Both the position numbers and the translations under genes were made by a program. From Lingula anatina (Eukaryota > Animalia > Brachiopoda): 64,000 nt of DNA. The stretch is from contig CM120649.1 of NCBI GenBank assembly GCA_051362555.1, positions 4,960,001 to 5,024,000 on the forward strand, read 5' to 3'. Under the pieces are notes generated by a model. It was given only the letters and a program-made list of their open reading frames with translations, did no database searches and was not told the origin of the DNA. Each line of letters starts with the position of its first letter. The first letter of the stretch is position 1. Of this stretch, positions 44,882 to 56,348 are shown piece after piece.

Positions 44882-47235
44882 TAAAATACTTACAAAATGG
44901 AGATCTACTCCTCCCTGTTCCCTGGAAGTATCTGGTTACTCCCGCGTGGAAGATGGCGTCTCTTGCTGGCAGCTCTGTGTCTCTGATTATTAGATAAATT
45001 ATTACATATCAAGTTTTATACAAATATATATACATAAAATGCTGAATATTGACTCAAGTGTTAAATGTAACAGTGTTAATATAAGCAGATAAGAGTAAAT
45101 TAAAAAAGCATTGTCAAATACATAATCATTTACTATGCTCAAATTTTAAATATAACTAATTCAATTATTAAGAATAATAATTATATCAATTATAACAATA
45201 ATTCTATATTTTATAATATACAAAAAGTCATTAGAGTTCAGATATATTCAAAAAGAAAATGTTTTTGTACTCTAATTATCAGTTATACAATCTACATTAT
45301 TGAAATAAGGTTATAAATCGATAAACAAAATAACAGTTTTCTTACAGTTTAAACTCCCTCTCCCTGCTCTTCCTGACTTCAGAATCATCTTCATACAACA
45401 ATATCTCCGTGTGTGGTCCGTTCCCCTCCACACCAGTGCCAGGGGTGTACTTCTTCAGTGGTTTTATCACCGTTTTCACATTAGTATTCAGCAGGGATTT
45501 CATCTGTTCTTTGATTATAGATGCCATTTCCAGGAGGAGCTGTCTTTGGGGGACTCGCGGGGTTGGTTCTGGTAAGTCTGATTCTGAAAAAGAATTAAAT
45601 AATAAATATGTAATAAATAAATAATGAATTTTTAAAAAAATAAACAAAAAGCACTGTAATAATGAACCTGATAATCTTGCAGTTTATTAAATGCTATGTC
45701 ACTTGCTATTTCATACATTTAACTGTTCTTTTTCTTTTCCTTAGAGAGAGAAGGGGGGGGGGGGGAAAGAGAAGAAAAATGGGAAAATTCACAAATAAAT
45801 TCCTAGTTTAAACTACAACAATCATACTCAATTAAATAAATAGACATAAACATGAACAGCTGTAAATACCTATCTTCTACCTTATCATACATAAACATTG
45901 GTTCACAGGAAGGTTTAGGGGTTGGGGGTTACAGATTTTTTCTTTTTACACAATTTGAAAGTTGTTAAAAGACCTTGCCCTACCTGGAGGTTCTACTCTC
46001 ACAGTGTTAATCTGGGTCTGTCTTGGATTCAGCTTCTCCATGAGCAGTTTAGTCAACCTCTTATAATTATGTCTGGAATACATTGTCTCTTTCACTTCAT
46101 CCATAGGAATTTTCTCAACCTCGGACATGTGAATAAGGAAATGTTGCAAAGTAAACTCCGGTGGCTGCGTGTATCTTTCATCGTTACTGAAGTCCACAAA
46201 TAAATTAGAGTCATATTGTAAGGCTGGGTGCCTTTTTGGTGCCCTAGCTGGCAGAGCGTCAGGCCCTCTAGGCTTATACGGCTTTACCAGCGACCGCCCC
46301 TGAACTATGGAATGTTGGGCCGTCGATGCCTCACGACTGTCAAGGATATATCGCCTATCCTGACTTACAAAATGTGGTGTCTGTGGGTGGGTTCTATACG
46401 AACTAGCTAAAAGTCTTGATGACCTTGACCTAGATTTTGTCTTTGACCTTGACCCACTTTTTCCAGAAGAGGGGTAGTATTCTGAAGGTGCTGGGGAGGC
46501 GAGACTTGGCACTACGCTTGGCACTGGGGACAATCTGGCATATTCTTCCTCTATGTGAAGACTTGATCGTTCTGATCTCGGCGTATCTTCCACTACTTCT
46601 ACTGGTTTTGGCTTTGGTCTAGGTCGCCTAAGAAGCTGCTTGCTTTTCGGCTCTGGTTGGTTTGACATCAGCAAAGGCACATGCTGTAATTGAAATTAAA
46701 AGTTTTTCTATGTAGAGAATCAAAGAAAAAGAGAGTAGCTTGCAAACGGAAGGAAAATATATGTATATTAAACACACATAATCAGGAGCAACATAAATGG
46801 AGGTTACCAGTAAATGGTCTGACATGTATGGCTTAAGCATAATACACGTCAACAGATCGATCGGTACCGATATTTGAGAGCACCAAGGGCAAGGCATAAG
46901 TATACAGCTGAGCACAAGCATAACCCATTTGCAATTTTATTGCATGTCCAGGACCCACTAAGTTAATAAAGTACAGAGTAAAGCTGAGTACGAAGGCTTA
47001 ACAAACCCAAGTGCATATATAAATAAATTTACAACTTGATTTTCTAAGTACAGTGCAGTTTACGCGCTGATAAAACAATATATTACAGCCTTTGGTCGGT
47101 TAAACATATTCGCTTGGGAATGCATCACTTCTGTTTAGGAAAGATTACCATGAAATCTCTGTCAATAGTCAATTAAGCGCATAATTAGCATAAATAACTC
47201 ACCGTCATAGTGTTTGGTCCTACTGTGGCCGCCAT
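41727..47235 (-). CDS. LRRC63: Leucine-rich repeat protein, LRRC63-like
   Basis: Ten exons with consistent phases: 47235-47203, 46683-45984, 45583-45346, 44982-44894, 44605-44520, 44143-44060, 43500-43349, 42823-42740, 42360-42213, 42026-41727. Pro/Ser/Arg-rich N-terminus; LRRs (LNLSFNDL, LKLRNNPI, LVISFNLL, LDISYNRL, LMVEGNQL); C-terminal CDCCNGPLYGPGLRLIR...FG..LPFLFVSCSPYC. The symbol is from recalled similarity, not a search. Confidence 0.8.
42370..42520. repeat. About 33-bp minisatellite, roughly 4.5 degenerate units, in an LRRC63-like intron
   Basis: Repeating tgaaacaggttgtgaaatatagacacaa-like unit right next to the exon 9 acceptor. Confidence 0.75.
43235..43310. repeat. (GA)n microsatellite
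   Basis: Direct GA run. Confidence 0.95.
44815..44872. repeat. (CT)n(CA)n compound microsatellite
   Basis: Direct runs. Confidence 0.95.
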
Positions 47236-47451
47236 TTTACAGCCGTTGTCATAACAACAAGACATGCCAAGTACAAGATTACTTCTGCATCAGTTTCAGT
47301 TCGTTAATTCATATGAAATATTGATTTATCGTAAATATTACTCTCAGGCATAACAACATAACAACACTATTATTATAATCAATTAAAGAGTCTTGTAGCT
47401 TATCTTGCATGTGACAGTCATGTGACCAACACCAGCTTGCAACAGACCGCA
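47236..47451. promoter_or_regulatory. Putative bidirectional promoter with an RFX X-box-like palindrome and an M-box/E-box
   Basis: 216 bp between divergent ATGs. GTTGTCATAACAAC at 47245-47258 is X-box-like and GTCATGTGAC at 47417-47426 is an M-box/E-box. The minus-strand start context is AAAATGGCGGC. Confidence 0.55.
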
Positions 47452-48463
47452 ATGTCTCGTCTTCAGCTGTTGAAGAAGTTCGCGCAAGTTGTAACTTTGC
47501 AAGTGCAACAATCGCGAACTTTCCAGGGAAGTGCACAGTGTTTTAGAAAATTCAATGCTCCTCTCTCTGGTAATGATTTAGCTCGGCCAGCGGGCATTGC
47601 GTCGATGATGCGTTTGCCCGTACAGGAAACCTCCGAAGGTACTGTACTGTGTTCGGTCTGAATACGTTTACTAACTAGTATGATTTAAATTGTTTTATGT
47701 AGTTCTTTGTGCAGGTATGCTAATGGTAATTGTGTTCTAGAAACATACGAAGTGCAAATACTAAGATTAATGTGTCTCGCCATAGTTCAGATCGTATAAA
47801 GACTGCGCTACGGCTGTACACTTTGTGGAATGCAAATCAAATGTTGAAAATCAAAACTCCAAGTTTACTAGTATATTATTGAACTAAAATGTGAACTGTC
47901 TGTATTATACTTATGATATTAGGATTTTTAAAATTAAAATCAAAGCAGAATTTCAGCAAGTAATTTTACCTGTTATATAATATACTTTTTAAGTTTTTAA
48001 GTAAAGTATATTTTAATCAAAATATAATCATATTCATTTTACAGTTTATTATTTATCATATTTAGTTAGTCAGCTACCGGTAGTAAGAAACACCTTAGAT
48101 TTAAATAGTAAGGGCAAATTTATTTATTTATGTCCTAAGGTTTGGATGTGTGTTTTGTTGGGGTGCCTCTGGATGCAGGGACATCAAATCGGTCTGGGAC
48201 CAGATTTGGACCACGCCAGATCCGGTCAGAATCCTGTATTATCAGACATGTGAACAATGCCACTGGTATGTGAAATTAACATAGTCTTCACTGTAATAAA
48301 CCTTTTTGGAGTGATTACTGTTCATAATAAGGATTTGAAATTTCATTTGGTCAGTTTTCTCATTAAGTAATTAAAAGAAAAAATGTGATCATATTTAGTT
48401 AAAATTGATGCTTTTTACAGTACTGATAACTCAGTTGAGACAAACAGTAGGCTTTTTGAATTG

Positions 48464-48506
<43 letters not shown>

Positions 48507-51500
48507 CCATCAGGAGCTCAGCCCTTTGATTCAATACAAGTGGCAGATGTTGGAGATGTCTGGATGAATATCTACAACTTACCAGAGGCTTGTAAGAATA
48601 TAAAAGATGGATTCACAAAGTTGATGAGCACTGGCTGTAAGACTTTGGCAGTGGGAGGAGATCACACCATAACATGGCCTATACTGCAAGCTGTCAAGGT
48701 AGGAGAACCCATTTATAGCATTTTTAAATATTTATTTGAAAAATAAAGATTTGTTATACACAGCATTTATATACATGTATAAGATTATCAGTTAAGTTTT
48801 CAAATATTTTGCTAAAACTGTATAAAGTTCATTATCTATAAAGTAATGATTTATCTCTAGAATTTTCAAAAATAAAATTTGGAGAATTAATACATTAGTC
48901 CCGTAAAATACAGCATTTATAAAGTACTAAAAAATTACTAGAAATTTCACTTACAAGATAATCACTTGAATTTCTAAACAGGACTCCATTAGAGAAAAAA
49001 ATTAGGGTCTGTTAATATAATTACCTTCTTTTACTATTTTATTCATTTATTACTTTTATTGTATACAGTGATTTGTAACTATGAAAATATAAAAAAGGGA
49101 TAGATATCATAATCAATTTAGGCAGTTCAAATCTAGTGAGTAATTACTGTATACAGGAAAAGCATGGCCCCGTTGGCTTGATACACGTGGATGCACATGC
49201 AGACACGCAAGAAGCAATGCTAGGTGCTCCTATTGCGCATGGTACTCCTTTCAAACGAGCAGCAGATGACGGATGTCTGGACTGCAAGCGCGTGGTGCAG
49301 ATTGGCCTGCGCGGCACGTGCGGAACGTTACAAGATTACAAGTTTGAAGAGAGCAAGGTGCTGAACTAAGGAATATGATCATTCATTTTTATTTTCAGAG
49401 TGCGTAACAACCCAGTCTCTTGGTCAGTTGTTTTGTAATTATACCCAGTTCATTCTGTGTATCCATCATGTGTACCTAGTATCCAGTCTGTGATATCCAT
49501 GCTATCCATCCATTATCCATCACATACCTATACTTGGTATATATCCAACACATGATATCCATTCTAACTGTGTATCCATTTCATTTTATGTTAATGTCAT
49601 ATGTATCCATGCTACCTATTCTCTCTGTCCATTTTATGCTTTTTACCCTTCATACCAGAGTGTATCTAATTTTACCATGATTGATATACTACCAATTCTT
49701 TGTATCCCATATCATGCTATGCATCCATTATATGTACCTACCTATCTGTAACACCCATTTTATGTATCCATTTCATTTTATCCATCCATCCATCCGTCTG
49801 TGGTGTACTGTTCTGCATATGGAAATGTAGTGTTTGTATTTAGTGATGTGAGTACGTAGTGTTACCTGTAATTAATTTTTTTATGGTGAATAGTTATACC
49901 TGTTGGCACCCTGCTTAAAAGCCCTGCACTTCTCTGCATTTTTGCATTTTTGCATACTTCTACTATCCACCAGACAGACAGAGAAGATACGGGAAAGCCA
50001 AGTGTGTTGAACACAAACTAGTACTGCTGCATGCATACTGCTAACTTACCTGCATGTTACTATATAACTCCATCGCATACTGCCGATTCTACAGCTACTG
50101 CTGACGCCTACTGCCTATGGATAGAGCTACCACATGTTGCTACAGCGTACCATTATAGTTGAATTCTAAAGCTTTAGCTTTACTGCATGTGATATAAGAT
50201 TCAGTGTATGCCAGCAGAGGTACTTCCAAGGGAATAAAAAAAAAATATTTGCAAAATCTAATTATGTACTACATAGTTGTTTTCTGTGTTCACCATCATA
50301 TACATGTATCCAACCTACCCATGTTGCCTGTTCCACACATCTGTATTTTCATGGGCATTGCCATGTTTATTTCCTGTAGGACATGCAATCTCAGGAAGTT
50401 TTTCACAATTTTTGATGAAATATACAGGATACACATTTTTGCAGGAGGAAAAGAAAGAGCTACAACTTCAGCTAGATCCAGTTCTTCTATTTTTTTTTTT
50501 TTTTTTTTTTTTGATAACTTCTTATTGCCATTTTGTCTTGACGGGGTCTGTGTTTTTGGAGTCATAGTATATAGCAGTGTACCGTTTTTATGTCCAGGAG
50601 AAATATGGCCCTGTCGGATTGGTTCACATTGACGCCCACTCTGACACGGGGGAGTCTATGTTAGGGGCGCCTGTTTACCACGGATCTACTTTCCGACGAG
50701 CCGTAGAGGACGGGTGCTTGAAAGGAACCCAAGTTGTCCAAATTGGCCTTCGTGGTACTGGGCATTCATTGAAGAGTTTTGATTGGTCAAAACAACAGGT
50801 GTTTTGTTTGTGACTTTTCTGCTTTTTTTTGTTTGTTTGAATCGCTTTTTATATGCATTCAGGTGTGAATGATCCAGTAGCGGTTGTGGCCTGCTGCATG
50901 CTTGCATGAGTATCTGCTGGTTTGAACTCTCTGACTGAGATCTTATATAATTAATAAAAAGTGCAAACACAATAAAACACTTCCCGGTCACCTCTGGCTA
51001 GTGCAAAATATAAAGCTGTAGGGCACATGTTGTATGTTTATTCAGTCACTTATGTTGTTTGTATTTATGAATTGACAAATGGTCATTATTTCATTTTGTG
51101 TGATTTTATTTAATATTTTATTTTTAGATTACTTTTATGTTTTTGATTTTATGGTACTTCATAGACTAATCATTTGTTTCGCCTCATTTGATTGGTGGAT
51201 TGAGCCTAGGTTAACCAGCCACTTTTTTCCAGTAGAAAAACCTTGAGCCATGACCTATGTGGACAAAACACAAAAAAGAAATCAGAAATGCAGACAAATA
51301 CAAATAAGATAAAGAAAAAACAATTGTGTGTTTTTTACTACTTTACAGTTAACTAAAAATAATTTTGTATGGTCCAGGAAAAGTATGGCCCAGTTGGTTT
51401 GGTTCATATTGACGCTCACGCTGACACCAATGAGGGGCTGCTGGGAGCACCTGTCAACCACGGGGCTCCTTTCAGACACGCGGCGGTGGAGGGGTGCCTG

Positions 51501-54500
51501 GATTATAAGAGAGTTGTACAGATTGGGTTACGAGGGACGGGATATGCAATGGAGGATTATGAATGGGGGAAAAAAGAGGTGGTTTTATAGTCTTCGAATG
51601 AGTCTGCTGATGAGTAGGTCCTAGCTGTTTAGAATCCCTGCTGGCAGCACATTTCAAAAGCTAAAGGCATTTCCCCAAACTGTTATTGTGTGCTGGCTTC
51701 TGCTAGAATTATGAAAAAAATTAAGGAATGCATTTTTTCTTTAATTCAAGTGATGATTTATATTATCATTCATGATTGTATGTTTTTTTTTTCTTTTAGT
51801 GACCCATACGCAGTGTTTTTTCATTGCATGTGTAAGATAAGTTCCTTCCCTTCATTCCACCCATCACTGCATTTGTCAGTCTGTCCTTCTGTATTTGTCT
51901 ATATTCCTTTCAGTCTGTCTGTCATTTTTGGTTCATGTTGGTCCATGTATCTCCAAGCCACCTTCAGTGTGCTTTAGCATATAACACATACTTTATACTT
52001 GACAATGTTCAATAATTTTTTGACATCTTGAACAAAATTCGGGCATGTCATTGCCACTGCATTACCTTGATGTTGTTGCACAGCTAAATAGCTAAGTGGA
52101 ACAGTCTTGGCAATATATCTGTCTTGCCATTAACTGGATGGGCATAATTATAAAACTAGGCATATTATTTTATAAACTTTAGAAAGTTTTGACTAAAACT
52201 TTTAATGTTCGTATGGACCCCATCTCATAATATCCTTTATTTATTTATTAATTAATTTATTTATTTATTTATTAAAATTGATATTTTTTAACCAAATGGA
52301 TGACCTTGTAGTTAGTGTCTGCAGCCTTCAGAGCGGGGTGATATGGGTTCGACCTACCATCTGATATATCGGGGGGGGGGGGGGGGGGGCTAAAATAGTA
52401 TACAAAGTTTCACAGTGCCTTTCAACTAGCAGACCCTCCACAGCGTAAAATTAAATGTAGATTCTAAAAATTTCTCTTTGAATCTTGATTTAGATTTCAA
52501 CCCCTTTGTAATCACACCTCAGAAAGTCAGATTTTTTGTTTTCCAGAACAATGTATGTGAACTTCTATAGAAAAAGCGAAGAGTCCTAACACTGTGACTG
52601 CTTAGTATAACTGTCAAACTTCCAGGGGAAACATGGGCCCGTGGGACTTATACACATTGACGCTCACGATGATACAGAAGAAGGCATGATGGGGGCCCCT
52701 ATTTTCCATGGGTCACCGTTTTATTTAGCCTGCGAGGAGGGTTGTCTCGACACAAAAAGAGTTGTACAGATCGGTTTACGAGGATCAGGGTTTGGGGCCA
52801 AGGATTATTCATATGCAAGGAAAAAGGTGGCAAAATTGCTTGTCCATGGATGATTTAAGTTGACTTTACAATTGGCTAACCGCAATTGCACTTTTTTTAA
52901 CAACACACAAATTAGAATTTTTGGTGTTCTTTCAAAAAAAACTACAACAGAACAGACTTTCATTTCCTAAAATGTAATATTTTAAATATATTTTAATATC
53001 TTTTATATTTTTTTGCCACTGTTGAAAATAGATAGAGTGTGCATTGCTTGCCTCTTTGTTACTGTATCAGTAGCATTCCTAGACCTGTAGCCACGTTTGC
53101 ATACATGCAGCATTTTCAAATGGCGAAGGGAGTACATCTTTCTCTGAAAAAGTGAATCTTTTTATCCCTTAAGCTGAACCACCTTGAGACATGGGATAAA
53201 ACCTGGATTAAATTTTGATTCAGCCCCTGGAACATTTTGACCAAAATGGTGGTGCTTTTCCCCCAAACACCCCGAAAATCCCCATGTCCATGGTCCTGGT
53301 TGCGTGTTCCAAATACAAATGCTTATGAAAAAAATTAGTGAAATGAAAAAATCAAATAGTTTGATCAGAAACACGGTTAGAAATGGTACAGTGAGAAAAA
53401 ATAATAATATAAAAAGGAAAAAATATTAGAAAAATCCAAATGTGTCTTCAAAAAATACACCAAAGACAGTGCAGAATCTCTTTTGTTGTAGTTGTAGTTT
53501 TGTGTGTTGTGCTCGTTTCCCAGTGTTTGACTTCATTACACCCGTCTTCATTACACATTTTTCCAAATCATACTATATGCTTTAGCTTAGGCAGGTACAG
53601 CAATTGCCCTGGGTGTCACTAAAAGAGGGGACCACTAAAAGATTTAGGCTTCGTTCACATGCAATGTCTATTTTCTAAATTCTATTTTCTATTTGCGGCA
53701 TGTCTTATGATCACGGTCTGTGCCCTGAATATCCCGCCGCGTAATTACTGGCAGCGCGAGCCAGTTACTATAAGTTACTATAAGTAACTGGCTCGCGCTG
53801 CCAGTAATTACGTGGCGGGATATTCAGGGCACAGACCATGATCATAAGATAGCGCGAATAGAAAAAAGAATTTAGAAAATAGACATTGCATGTGAACGAA
53901 GCCTTATTGTAACCTTTTATCATCTATTTGTTCTCTTTTGTCTTCTGTTTGTTTCATTGTCAGTGCTATTCTCTGTAGAAAAAACACCGCTTTACAGATT
54001 TCTTCCTTTTGATTGAAATTGGTGTCTTACCTTTACATTGCCTTGGGCTAGTTTCAGAAAAGAACTTAAGACTAAAAAAAAAAAAACAAAAGTATATGTA
54101 TATTAAATTGAAATGTTAAATAAAATAATAACACTGTATTCTAAAAAGAAAGAAATTCTGACTTATGTTTAGACTAATTGGTACTTTTTTAAAATTATTT
54201 TAGTGGACGACTTAATTTTTGACCTTATAGATGACACACAACATTTTTTAGGTATATAAAAGTTATTTTTTTGAAACTGGCCATAAGGTTTTCAATACAT
54301 GTTGTTCCCTTCTTAATTTCATCTGCTGCCTGCTTTTTATTATGCAGAAAATGCTTTTGTTGCCTTTGATAATTATTCATTCTTATAATTAAAGATTGTC
54401 ATAATATTAAAAATGTGTTATTAAATGATTTTATATTTGTTCAAGTGAAAAAAAAAAAAAAAAAACATTAGTTTCTTAGTTGGTAAATCCAGTTGATGAA

Positions 54501-56309
54501 TATTTGATTATAATTATTCATTCAAACTTGAGAAGGAAAAATGCAAACATTTAGCATCCAGTGCATAAAACCTTTCATATTAGTGTAAATGTAAATATTT
54601 TTCCAATAAAAAATGTAGCATTAGAATTTCAAATAATGCTGTCCATTTATAACTTGAGGCATTATTCCCTGTATATATAAAGAATATTTTATGTTCTAGG
54701 GTTTCCGAATAGTCCAGGCACATGAGTGTTGGCACAAGTCACTCGCCCCTCTCATGGAGGAGGTGAGGGAGATGATGGGGGATGGCCCTGTCTACATCAG
54801 TTTTGATATTGATGGCATTGACCCTGCCTTTGCTCCTGGGACAGGTGAGAGAGAGAGAGAGAGAGAGAGAGAAGAACAAAAAGAGAGAGAGAGAGAGAGA
54901 GAAAGGAACAAAAAAAGAGAGAGATAAAGGAGAGAGAGCAAAAAAAAGAGAGAGAAAGAGAGGGGCAGAGAGAGATAAAGAGAGAAATTAAAGTAGTGAG
55001 GCAGAGAGAGAGAGAAATAAATGAGAGAGACTCAGAGAGATCTAGGGGAAAAAGAGGCAAATAGCCTGTCAGTTAGGGAGAGCCATTTTGTGATAAATGA
55101 CATAAGTTTAAATAACCAATGAAGACAGACAGGTAACAAGAGAGAATGCTGCCTGGTTGTACTGTATTCTTTATTCTTTCTTGAATCAACAAATAACTGT
55201 GAAACTAAAAGGAAAATAAATAACAATAATAAATAAATAATAAATATCTCATAAAACAGTCTCATCAAACCAAATTTGTGTGTTACTATACAGTTACATG
55301 TGATATTGCTAACACTATTGTGAGACCAAACACTAGTAGCAACTACAGTACATTCTCTAATTTGAAACATGTACATTGTACACTTTTAATCTAACAATAA
55401 AGTGTGAATAACATTACTTTAAAACAATATCATAAATGTCACATGCTTACTTTTTTGCTCTCTTCTAAGGTCTCCTAAGCTGAGGTCCTGCCTGTCTCAC
55501 TTCTTTCAAATGTCTGCCAAATTCAGCACAGAAAATGCTAGCAGGTCATGTGGACTACTTCTCACTTATGCAGATTATAAGTTGAGAGACTGAGATTGTG
55601 CTAGTTGTGCTTCTAGTACTGCTGGTGCAATCATTGCACCTACACAACACAATATATTATATTATATTATATTATATTATATTATATTATATTATATTAT
55701 ATTATATTATATTTCAGGCACCCCAGAGATAGCAGGTTTGACCCCAATCCAGGCACTGGAAATCATACGTGGTTGCCGGGGTCTAAACGTTGTGGGGGGA
55801 GACTTAGTAGAGGTGAGATCTCGTGGGGGGATATCCAGATGACAGGGATTTAATGTGTAAATACGTCATGAAATGTGCTACCTGTATTAACAAAACACTT
55901 GCTGATCCCAGATGCTGCAGTTACATGTGTGCGTGTGATTGATTGTGTGTGTGTGTGTGTTTAGCGGGGGGGGAGGGGGGGGGGGGTAATGTTTCAATCC
56001 CTTAACTGCTGTGCTGGACATATATTAAGTAGTTACTGCAGACAAGGTAATTGTAATGGGAGGTCACAAGGATTATCAGTGGTTCATTCTGCTTCATTTG
56101 ATGTACGTGGGAGAAGCTTGGAGGGGACTTGTGGTCTGCTGTACCCCATCTCCCCTTGATCAGGCAAGTTAATTGTAACTGAAACTTCCTTCTTTCTTCT
56201 CTAGGTGTCACCACCTTATGATACAACAGGCAATACAGCCTTACTGGCAGCTAATCTGCTGTTTGAGATGCTCTGTGTGTTCCCTGGTGTGAAGTATGCT
56301 GATGTATAG
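47452..56309 (+). CDS. AGMAT: Agmatinase / guanidino-acid hydrolase (ureohydrolase family), 347 aa with any one exon 4, probable mitochondrial presequence
   Basis: Exons 47452-47638, 48140-48265, 48514-48698, [one of four 201-nt exon 4 copies], 54700-54844, 55718-55812, 56205-56309. Motifs [25 protein letters not shown], DAHx[29 protein letters not shown]. The N-terminus is basic, lacks acidic residues and contains RTFQGS. Confidence 0.93.
49157..49357 (+). CDS. AGMAT: AGMAT alternative exon 4a
   Basis: atacag|GAA...AAG|gtgctg, 201 nt, phase 0/0. [67 protein letters not shown]. Confidence 0.9.
50598..50798 (+). CDS. AGMAT: AGMAT alternative exon 4b
   Basis: gtccag|GAG...CAG|gtgttt, 201 nt, phase 0/0. 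[67 protein letters not shown]. Confidence 0.9.
51378..51578 (+). CDS. AGMAT: AGMAT alternative exon 4c
   Basis: gtccag|GAA...GAG|gtggtt, 201 nt, phase 0/0. [67 protein letters not shown]. Confidence 0.9.
52305..52356 (+). mobile_element. Possible decayed tRNA-derived SINE head
   Basis: tagttagtgtctgcagccttcagagcggggtgatatGGGTTCGAcc has A-box/B-box-like spacing but no full cloverleaf. Confidence 0.25.
52626..52826 (+). CDS. AGMAT: AGMAT alternative exon 4d
   Basis: ttccag|GGG...AAG|gtggca, 201 nt, phase 0/0. [67 protein letters not shown]. Confidence 0.9.
53647..53903. mobile_element. Near-perfect palindromic PIF/Harbinger (Tourist-like) MITE
   Basis: tta-GGCTTCGTTCACATGCAATGTCTATTTTCTAAATTC ... 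GAATTTAGAAAATAGACATTGCATGTGAACGAAGCC-tta. The arms pair over about 120 bp; TTA target-site duplication. Confidence 0.9.
54846..55040. repeat. GA-rich low-complexity tract
   Basis: Interrupted (GA)n directly after the AGMAT exon 5 donor. Confidence 0.9.
55652..55712. repeat. (ATATT)n microsatellite
   Basis: About 12 units ending a few nt before the AGMAT exon 6 acceptor. Confidence 0.95.
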
Positions 56310-56348
56310 ACACTACTGACTGCAGTTTTTTTTTCCACCTGGGACACA

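Follow-up and report, generated by a model that had tools for sequence, protein, structure and literature searches.

An agmatinase/guanidino-acid-hydrolase gene of the brachiopod Lingula anatina carries its exon 4 as four tandem 201-nt copies (4a-4d), and at least three of them (4a, 4c and 4d) are spliced as alternatives. Between 4a and 4b lies a short intronic site that we tentatively read, at somewhat less than even confidence, as a plausible but unproven competing-pairing element: an internal dock whose predicted main partner is a sequence behind 4b, with a less frequent one behind 4c. Positions are those of the window, the whole 64,000-nt stretch of contig CM120649.1 analysed here, and all features lie on its + strand.

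The gene opens with coding exon 1 (47452..47638; ATG at 47452), joined in RNA to exon 2 (47638>48140). Exon 2 (48140..48265), placed by an RNA joint and by alignment, includes the Arg aligned to R72 of Pseudomonas GbuA, a residue whose role is taken from PMC9772407. RNA joints and the spliced product define the constitutive exons upstream (exon 3, 48514..48698) and downstream (exon 5, 54700..54844) of the cluster, as well as exon 6 (55718..55812); the joint 55812>56205 leads to the last coding exon (56205..56312, end approximate) of a 347-aa product. In between stand 4a (49157..49357), 4b (50598..50798), 4c (51378..51578) and 4d (52626..52826), all in frame and flanked by AG..GT. Pairwise, the copies share 118-136 of 201 nt and 37-42 of 67 residues, and an exon tree puts the four together with weak support (57/68, bootstrap not settled). 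Spliced with 4a, the product is identical to L. anatina XP_013401191 at 341 of 347 positions. The cassette is genuine.

RNA reads join 4a, 4c and 4d one at a time. Of the 91 reads that start from the exon 3 donor in the joints listed, 68 go to 4a, 12 go to 4d and 11 skip all four copies; onward to exon 5 there are 50 reads from 4a, 8 from 4d and, in RNA run X17, 4 from 4c. 4a is dominant in runs X11 and X13. No copy-to-copy joint occurs among the 15 of 39 joints listed, a count that leaves room for low-level co-inclusion. RefSeq XP_013401182 (isoform X1) carries 4c and XP_013401191 (isoform X2) carries 4a, at 64/67 each; two of the four copies thus have annotated isoforms, whereas none of the 3 members of the RefSeq isoform cluster has 4b or 4d, and a protein search with 4d gave no match above 69% identity. 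4b has low RNA depth and no joint among the same 15 of 39. Its open frame is under purifying selection, with 13 synonymous changes against 1 amino-acid change in the divergent lineage X20.

What, then, keeps the copies apart? The reading frame is kept whichever copy is used, and NMD is therefore unable to enforce exclusivity, as the preliminary description had argued from the 201-nt length. It had also set steric exclusion aside. The nearest upstream AG lies 18-31 nt from every variable acceptor, which likely places the branch points close by and makes steric exclusion improbable; as there are no long AG-free zones, we set it aside as the cause. The donors of the variable exons are weak, with 4-6 of 9 U1 matches and +4A or +5G in none. 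A possible cryptic exon from an acceptor-like site at 49973 to a donor-like site at 50219 was rejected (depth 0 in 3 of 4 RNA runs).

The candidate docking site (50191..50230) combines the originally described stretch, 50204-50230, with a 5' extension, 50192-50205. All three complementary strings of the preliminary description are present, and RNAduplex reproduces both of its pairings: with the post-4c partner (51636..51650) the dock is predicted to form 15 bp (4+9+2; -23.5 kcal/mol) interrupted by two single-nt bulges, and with 50901-50921 behind 4b it forms 9+5+4 bp (-20.8 kcal/mol). The CCAGCAG core is common to the two duplexes, both of which run through 50211-50218; thus one site is predicted to be complementary to two selectors via overlapping bases. 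What had been overlooked is that 50192-50205 pairs with 50934-50949, which extends the post-4b partner to 50901..50949 and the helix to ~32 bp (-33.1 kcal/mol). A further stretch behind 4b, 50874..50900, can pair with the dock too. By eye 50905-50920 also resembles 51598-51610, which pairs with the dock at only -12.3, and permissive scoring found no significant homology between cassette introns, which is weak evidence. Rfam has no match on the dock or its partners; its sub-threshold miRNA matches all fall on a palindromic repeat at 53731-53821.

Global folding supports competition between the two pairings, at the level of prediction. The ensemble pairs the dock with the post-4b side at 0.88 and with the post-4c side at 0.05, while the MFE of a 1650-nt fold uses the post-4c helix instead. 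Across global folds the dock core has a pairing of 0.88-0.92 with 50912-50921, and the extension one of 0.94-0.98. The imbalance invites a simpler account, in which the dock:post-4b helix alone is functional as a loop-out that silences 4b, and the post-4c match is incidental, with no competition. The post-4c site indeed sits mostly in a local hairpin (0.91; local pairing with 51600-51612), the described helix does not appear when the dock region is cofolded with 51579-51720, and the lack of a 4b joint among those listed fits as well. Opening the post-4c site costs 7-11 kcal/mol, which counts against the dock explanation. However, the 1650-nt MFE contains the post-4c helix, the post-4c site beats 300 of 300 target shuffles when the dock is held fixed, and the alignment of X20 stops just beyond this site. 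We consider this account decidedly unlikely.

Set against shuffled introns, the duplex energies gave a divided answer: a joint score stood out and single pairs did not. The joint score asks which 27-mer in intron a pairs best with post-4b and post-4c sequence alike; its choice is exactly 50204, at -24.7, the best two-partner site of the intron. This value was reached by 0 of 60 dinucleotide shuffles, 0 of 48 trinucleotide shuffles and 0 of 89 whole-intron shuffles, and by 1 of 86 real 1240-nt genomic segments; the architecture with an internal dock was the best of 9 tried. On the post-4b side, however, -24.7 depends on 50874-50903 and not on the site first described; in a 30-nt window the latter gives -22.4, a level reached by 2 of 48 trinucleotide shuffles and at least 12 of 86 genomic segments. 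Tests of single pairs were not significant (45x60 duplex, 3/36; global-fold helix, 3/33; strict alignment, p 0.65). Canonical architectures do less well, at -15.1 for an upstream dock and -21.3 for a downstream dock that falls inside the palindromic repeat, and there is no convincing canonical dock in intron 3 or behind 4d.

Could all the pairings be chance? Weak splice sites and competition in exon definition would then account for exclusivity, and the aligned dock would be ordinary intron between indel-rich stretches. Strict scoring shows no outstanding inter-intron complementarity in the cassette, skipping of all copies in 11 of 91 listed reads from exon 3 is as expected for uniformly weak exons, and the test windows were picked after the sequence was seen. 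Against this, the joint score beats three shuffle nulls, and the dock of X20 can be aligned whereas its flanks cannot. Of the explanations weighed here we give this one the least credence, and hold it to be very improbable.

Lineage X20 shows 28% synonymous divergence in 4b (pS 0.28). Around the dock, 50197-50269 can be aligned, unlike the 24 contig letters that precede it and those that stand for 50270-50523. The stretch 50197-50228 has no indel and 0-3 substitutions; the probability of 3 or fewer in 32 is 0.01 at a 28% background and 0.6 at 10%. As to conservation, then, the dock stands as an alignable island, but its third stem does not come through intact (2 changes at 50229-50230), and the 5 outer nt of the dock extension are absent. 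The neighbouring post-4b site 50874-50903 falls from -23.5 to -17.4; the joint score rests on this site, and its weakening in X20 counts against the dock explanation. At some point within 50888-51077, X20 carries about 22 extra letters, which could split the post-4b partner. Behind 4c the alignment runs through the partner and ends at 51662, 12 nt past it. Most of intron b aligns as well, at 85-90%, so alignability is not specific to the partners. No compensatory change appears among the 40 of 161 differences listed, whose X20 entries reach 50887 and include none at the post-4c partner. Among the other lineages, the deletions listed for X5 at 50233 and 50953 narrowly miss the paired stretches, in favour of the dock; X3 and X5 have 0 substitutions over 50120-50357/50375, a span far wider than the dock that may reflect a shared haplotype; and X10 (organism B) yields two short A/T-rich pieces only, uninformative on dock conservation.

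Conservation could also reflect protein binding. UGCAUG is an Rbfox-type motif and YGCY a Muscleblind-type motif, and the elements may be such sites; their complementarity would then be incidental, a CAG-rich word happening to match CUG-rich clusters. YGCY reaches 3.3 per 100 nt behind 4b and 2.7 behind 4c, compared with 1.3 behind 4a, 0.7 behind 4d and 0.98 in the window. UGCAUG stands at 50895 and 50903, the latter copy overlapping the post-4b partner; the dock contains a donor-like GAG/GTACTT with 6/9 U1 matches; and several CUGCUG sites accept the same dock core. On the other hand, shuffles that preserve trinucleotides never attain the joint score (0/48), and these motifs leave the A/U-rich 14-bp extension unexplained. 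Protein sites as the whole explanation seem to us unlikely.

If the dock does act by competing pairings, the ~32-bp helix with the post-4b partner would loop out 4b and the 15-bp helix with the post-4c partner would loop out 4b and 4c. Given the weak donors, such loops would mainly keep 4b and 4c out of transcripts that contain 4a or 4d; alone, they would not select the winning copy. That one pairing favours 4c and the other 4d, as originally proposed, is something we can only infer. Skipping of 4a had been left outside the scheme, and rightly: the dock has no good partner before 4a (best -11.7, in intron 3) and none behind 4d (best -17.4). Lying inside the cluster without these partners, the dock alone does not explain the dominant 4a isoform. 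The choice between 4a and 4d would need more, be it splice-site strength, proteins or a predicted hairpin over the 4a acceptor (49053..49162), whose 15-bp stem joins 49059-49073 with 49142-49156 (z -2.06; 7 of 200 shuffles; best of 10 windows folded). More speculatively, 48776..48804 may be a second upstream partner for 50921-50949 (duplex -22.9, cofold ddG -14.2); this pairing, which does not exceed shuffles (p 0.38), would loop out 4a and 4b.

The leading mechanism put forward for mutually exclusive exons is competition between RNA pairings, with an upstream dock in Dscam1 exon 6 and a downstream dock in 14-3-3zeta, Mhc and MRP1 (PMC6071210). Like these genes, Lingula has tandem homologous exons of equal, frame-preserving length, spliced singly for 4a, 4c and 4d, and an intronic site complementary to several others via one core, with the same looping-out logic. 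Unlike in these genes, the candidate dock is internal, situated between 4a and 4b, rather than outside the cluster with a selector for each exon (or all but the proximal one); it has predicted partners at two positions only, none in the cluster-flanking introns. The bidirectional pairing model of Drosophila srp and Dscam exons 4 and 9 (PMC4691838) comes close in other respects: pairing from an element placed among the variable exons spans a single exon, weak splice sites contribute, and 48776-48804:50921-50949 would compete for the same post-4b arm. It differs in that the Lingula upstream pairing is not above shuffles and would span two exons, and in that no downstream dock was found behind 4d.

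The swapped segment belongs to a ureohydrolase, by sequence of the guanidino acid hydrolase/GbuA type, with that activity predicted. Homologues of the product carry the arginase domain PF00491, and the fold follows from alignment to GbuA (PDB 3NIO; E 1.9e-134). DAHxD and DxD metal-ligand motifs occur in all four exon 4 copies, and the R72-equivalent Arg is supplied by exon 2. The ureohydrolase fold, DAHxD and this Arg are shared with human AGMAT/guanidino acid hydrolase (PMC9772407) and GbuA; unlike either, one Lingula gene encodes four versions of the 67-residue segment that holds metal ligands and substrate loop. The position of GbuA M161 reads M, M, L and M in 4a-4d, and no comparable exon cassette was seen among the listed homologues.

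In its broadest form, the proposal is that a brachiopod independently evolved a competing-RNA-pairing switch, with an internal dock, a post-4b hub for two upstream arms and a 4a-acceptor hairpin, by which one mitochondrial guanidino-acid-hydrolase gene yields four enzymes with different substrate loops. We find it rather doubtful as a whole. If true, structure-guided mutually exclusive splicing would reach a metabolic enzyme of a lophotrochozoan; the worked cases of competing pairings in the literature considered here are arthropod genes and human ATE1. As a four-exon cluster that has a candidate internal dock, and of which several divergent lineages are already sequenced, it would let one ask in a compact setting whether every tandem exon duplication gives rise to such structures. 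Pairing aside, the cassette swaps the metal-binding segment and substrate loop, giving four natural active-site variants on one scaffold. The animal substrate of guanidino acid hydrolase is still debated (PMC9772407), and these variants make the question directly testable.

The cassette belongs to a plus-strand agmatinase/guanidino acid hydrolase gene, in which four alternative copies of exon 4, each 201 nt long with AG..GT bounds, follow one another on the plus strand: 4a (49157-49357), 4b (50598-50798), 4c (51378-51578) and 4d (52626-52826). All four encode the same 67 residues, with 37-42/67 identity among copies. Exon 4a is identical to XP_013401191 (Lingula anatina) at 64 of 67 positions, which assigns the window to a Lingula, and RefSeq isoforms exist for 4a (X2) and 4c (X1), each matching our spliced product at 341/347 residues. 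None of the 3 RefSeq cluster members carries 4b or 4d, and a protein search with 4d gave nothing above 69% identity. In an alignment of the protein with Pseudomonas guanidinobutyrase 3NIO (E 1.9e-134), a manual count places the DAHxD ligands and the GbuA M161 position inside the variable exon. M161, a substrate-recognition residue of GbuA according to PMC10833137, corresponds to M, M, L and M in 4a, 4b, 4c and 4d. The Arg equivalent to GbuA R72, linked to acidic substrates in PMC9772407, is encoded by constitutive exon 2.

Phe-Glu is encoded at 49344-49347 of the window, whereas every RNA read that covers these positions, and the RefSeq protein too, has Trp-Gly; homologues usually carry Trp at the Phe position, and Phe-Glu would be either a lineage-specific change or an assembly error. 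A head-to-head neighbour gene occupies the minus strand (45946-47236), with a 249-aa Arg/Ser-rich open stretch at 45946-46695 and, near 47236, what is probably its first exon, ~220 nt from the hydrolase ATG.

Use of the cassette was followed in four RNA runs from three studies (~6% of reads used in three runs, 25% in one). Summed over runs, the listed joints leaving exon 3 comprise 68 reads to 4a, 12 to 4d and 11 to exon 5, and those entering exon 5 comprise 50 from 4a, 8 from 4d and 4 from 4c (run X17). Exons 4a, 4c and 4d are included alternatively and singly, with 4a the dominant copy among listed joints. No copy-to-copy joint occurs among the 15 of 39 joints listed, the other 24 being less well supported, so that rare co-inclusion may occur; none of these 15 involves 4b, whose bin depth is just 0.2-3.1. 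The isoform that skips every copy (48698>54700, 11 of the 91 reads in listed joints out of exon 3) is in frame and likely inactive, because it is devoid of the DAHxD metal ligands. In DNA run X20, 4b shows 14 differences, 13 of them synonymous (pS 0.28, pN 0.006), which points to strong purifying selection on 4b at present. The terminal branches of 4a-4d are all long in the tree (0.35-0.72 vs a median of 0.18), which suggests fast change of the copies after duplication.

The preliminary description had argued that neither NMD nor steric hindrance could enforce exclusivity, and both premises hold. The 201-nt length preserves frame. Upstream of every variable acceptor the nearest AG is 18-31 nt away, which makes distant branch points, and with them steric exclusion, improbable. 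The donors of 4a, 4b, 4c and 4d match U1 at 4, 6, 5 and 4 of 9 positions (constitutive donors, 5-7) and every one lacks both +4A and +5G; they appear fairly weak.

A candidate docking site (dock) at 50204-50230, between 4a and 4b, had been proposed to pair with competing partners, and both duplexes form as claimed: 4+9+2 bp with 51636-51650 behind 4c (-23.5 kcal/mol) and 9+5+4 bp with 50901-50921 behind 4b (-20.8 kcal/mol). In fact, the post-4b pairing extends further, 50192-50205 with 50934-50949, to a total of ~32 bp and -33.1. In the predicted fold of 50100-51750 the dock core is engaged by the post-4b site at 0.88 and by the post-4c site at 0.05. A local hairpin occupies the post-4c site at 0.91, yet it is the post-4c helix that appears in the single MFE structure. 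To open an arm of the post-4b pair would cost 7-8 kcal/mol, and an arm of the post-4c pair 7-11. That the post-4b helix acts alone is unlikely.

Could such pairings arise by chance? For each 27-mer of intron a (after 4a) we took the best duplex with sequence behind 4b and the best with sequence behind 4c, and scored the less stable of the two. This joint score picks exactly 50204, at -24.7, a value attained by 0/60 local dinucleotide shuffles, 0/48 trinucleotide shuffles, 0/89 shuffles when whole introns served as targets and 1/86 real 1240-nt segments of the window; the two-partner dock architecture was the strongest among 9 computed. The partner behind 4b yielding -24.7 is an alternative site, 50874-50903; the site first proposed yields -22.4, which at least 12/86 segments attain, as do 2/48 trinucleotide shuffles. 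Taken singly, the extended pair gave p 0.65 under strict complementarity scoring, where the smallest p among cassette intron pairs (0.034) came from an A/T-rich match elsewhere. No duplex between intron a and intron b (after 4b) scores better than the extended one, yet 3/36 shuffles equalled it, and 3/33 shuffles had as many confident long-range pairs across 4b. The two-partner pattern thus truly departs from shuffled energies, whereas each pair by itself does so weakly; chance as the whole explanation is quite improbable.

Conservation was assessed over 50120-51720 in four DNA runs. X10 gave no usable alignment there; X20 bears the same species label and represents a divergent lineage. A 946-nt X20 contig aligns at 50524-51077 and 50197-50269. 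The 268 letters between these pieces (window 50270-50523; 45 are masked repeat) and the 24 ahead of 50197 are unalignable at 80%, so the dock lies within an island that stands alone. Distance-to-end values imply that 50197-50239 is probably free of indels. Of the island's 6 substitutions, three are listed at 50229, 50230 and 50239; the others apparently fall within ~30 letters of an end, which would leave 0-3 in the dock core. Unless compensated, the changes at 50229-50230 abolish the 4-bp stem, taking the duplex from -20.8 to -18.7; the dock extension loses its outer 5 nt, and the alternative site (50874-50900) goes from -23.5 to -17.4. Behind 4b, X20 differs by 12 substitutions over 50813-50843 and by three over 50875-50887, with none listed for the stretch between (50844-50874); 50888-51077 holds at most 17, together with ~22 inserted letters, of which 19 are unplaced. 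Behind 4c its alignment is gapless as far as 51662, with 11 substitutions over 101 nt, and the next 228 letters are unalignable. The 40 of 161 differences listed cover neither dock partner. Since a large part of intron b aligns at 85-90%, how strong the signal is hinges on the neutral rate: the probability of at most 3 substitutions in 32 is 0.01, 0.18 or 0.60 at 28%, 17% or 10%. Judged by alignment, the candidate dock persists in the divergent lineage as an island, its third stem changed.

We envision that the dock would pair mostly with the long post-4b arm, looping out 4b, and at times with the post-4c arm, looping out 4b and 4c. Because neither the sequence behind 4d (-17.4) nor intron 3, between exon 3 and 4a (-11.7), offers it a good partner, and because 4a dominates, we read the helices as putatively suppressing the middle exons, short of a full selector system. 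The earlier interpretation stands in part: the cassette is alternative and in frame, steric exclusion is improbable, and the partners that a full system would use are missing. That the pairings favour 4c or 4d, as it proposed, is possible. Competing pairing at the dock we hold tentatively. YGCY words reach ~3x the window average behind 4b and 4c, and two UGCAUG occur; we take both to be protein-binding motifs, and that the elements act as such is somewhat doubtful.

Elsewhere in intron a, 49870-50190 is G+C-richer and repeats the word TACTGC, two instances of which resemble the branch-point consensus. This stretch also has three UGCAUG and, ending at 49972, an acceptor-like tract; 3 of 4 runs give it no RNA cover. 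A degenerate TATCCAT-rich repeat (49444-49800) is spaced at ~131 nt. A palindromic MITE-like repeat at 53646-53904 (arms 52 nt at 96%, 85 nt at 88%) has a heavy read pile-up on two strands and sub-threshold miRNA-family matches.

The preliminary description conceded that the dock leaves skipping of 4a unexplained. A predicted hairpin (49053-49162), whose 15-bp stem covers the last 15 intron bases and AG of exon 4a, could provide an answer, yet 4a is the dominant isoform; against shuffles the hairpin is not significant (z -2.06, 7/200, best of 10 windows). A second lead on 4a skipping, 48776-48804 in intron 3, has TATAAGAT..TCAGT in common with the 5' extension of the dock, and lies ~380 nt upstream of 4a as the dock lies ~405 nt upstream of 4b. 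Its predicted partner, 50921-50949, is an arm also used by the dock extension; this pairing is not above shuffles (p 0.38), and a grid duplex scan missed 48776-48804, the best intron-3 pair there being equalled by 4/29 shuffles.

According to PMC6071210, the dock of Dscam exon 6 precedes its cluster, those of 14-3-3zeta, Mhc and MRP1 follow theirs, and docks originate by duplication of one stem-loop arm; PMC4691838 has bidirectional pairing acting together with weak splice sites. The Lingula element may be alike in its way of working. Canonical docks in these texts, in contrast, lie outside the cluster with a selector for each exon, and because the Lingula dock lacks this feature we keep it apart from the canonical class. 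We found no report of an agmatinase with mutually exclusive exons. The gene is absent from the titles and abstract openings listed for Lingula work on mutually exclusive splicing, whose supplementary exon tables could include the cassette, and the papers listed on lophotrochozoan RNA pairing with tandem exons hold no such case. As far as searched, cassette and dock are unpublished. Thus, Lingula has a solid four-way active-site cassette, so far annotated by half only, for which the docking model would be a fair candidate.
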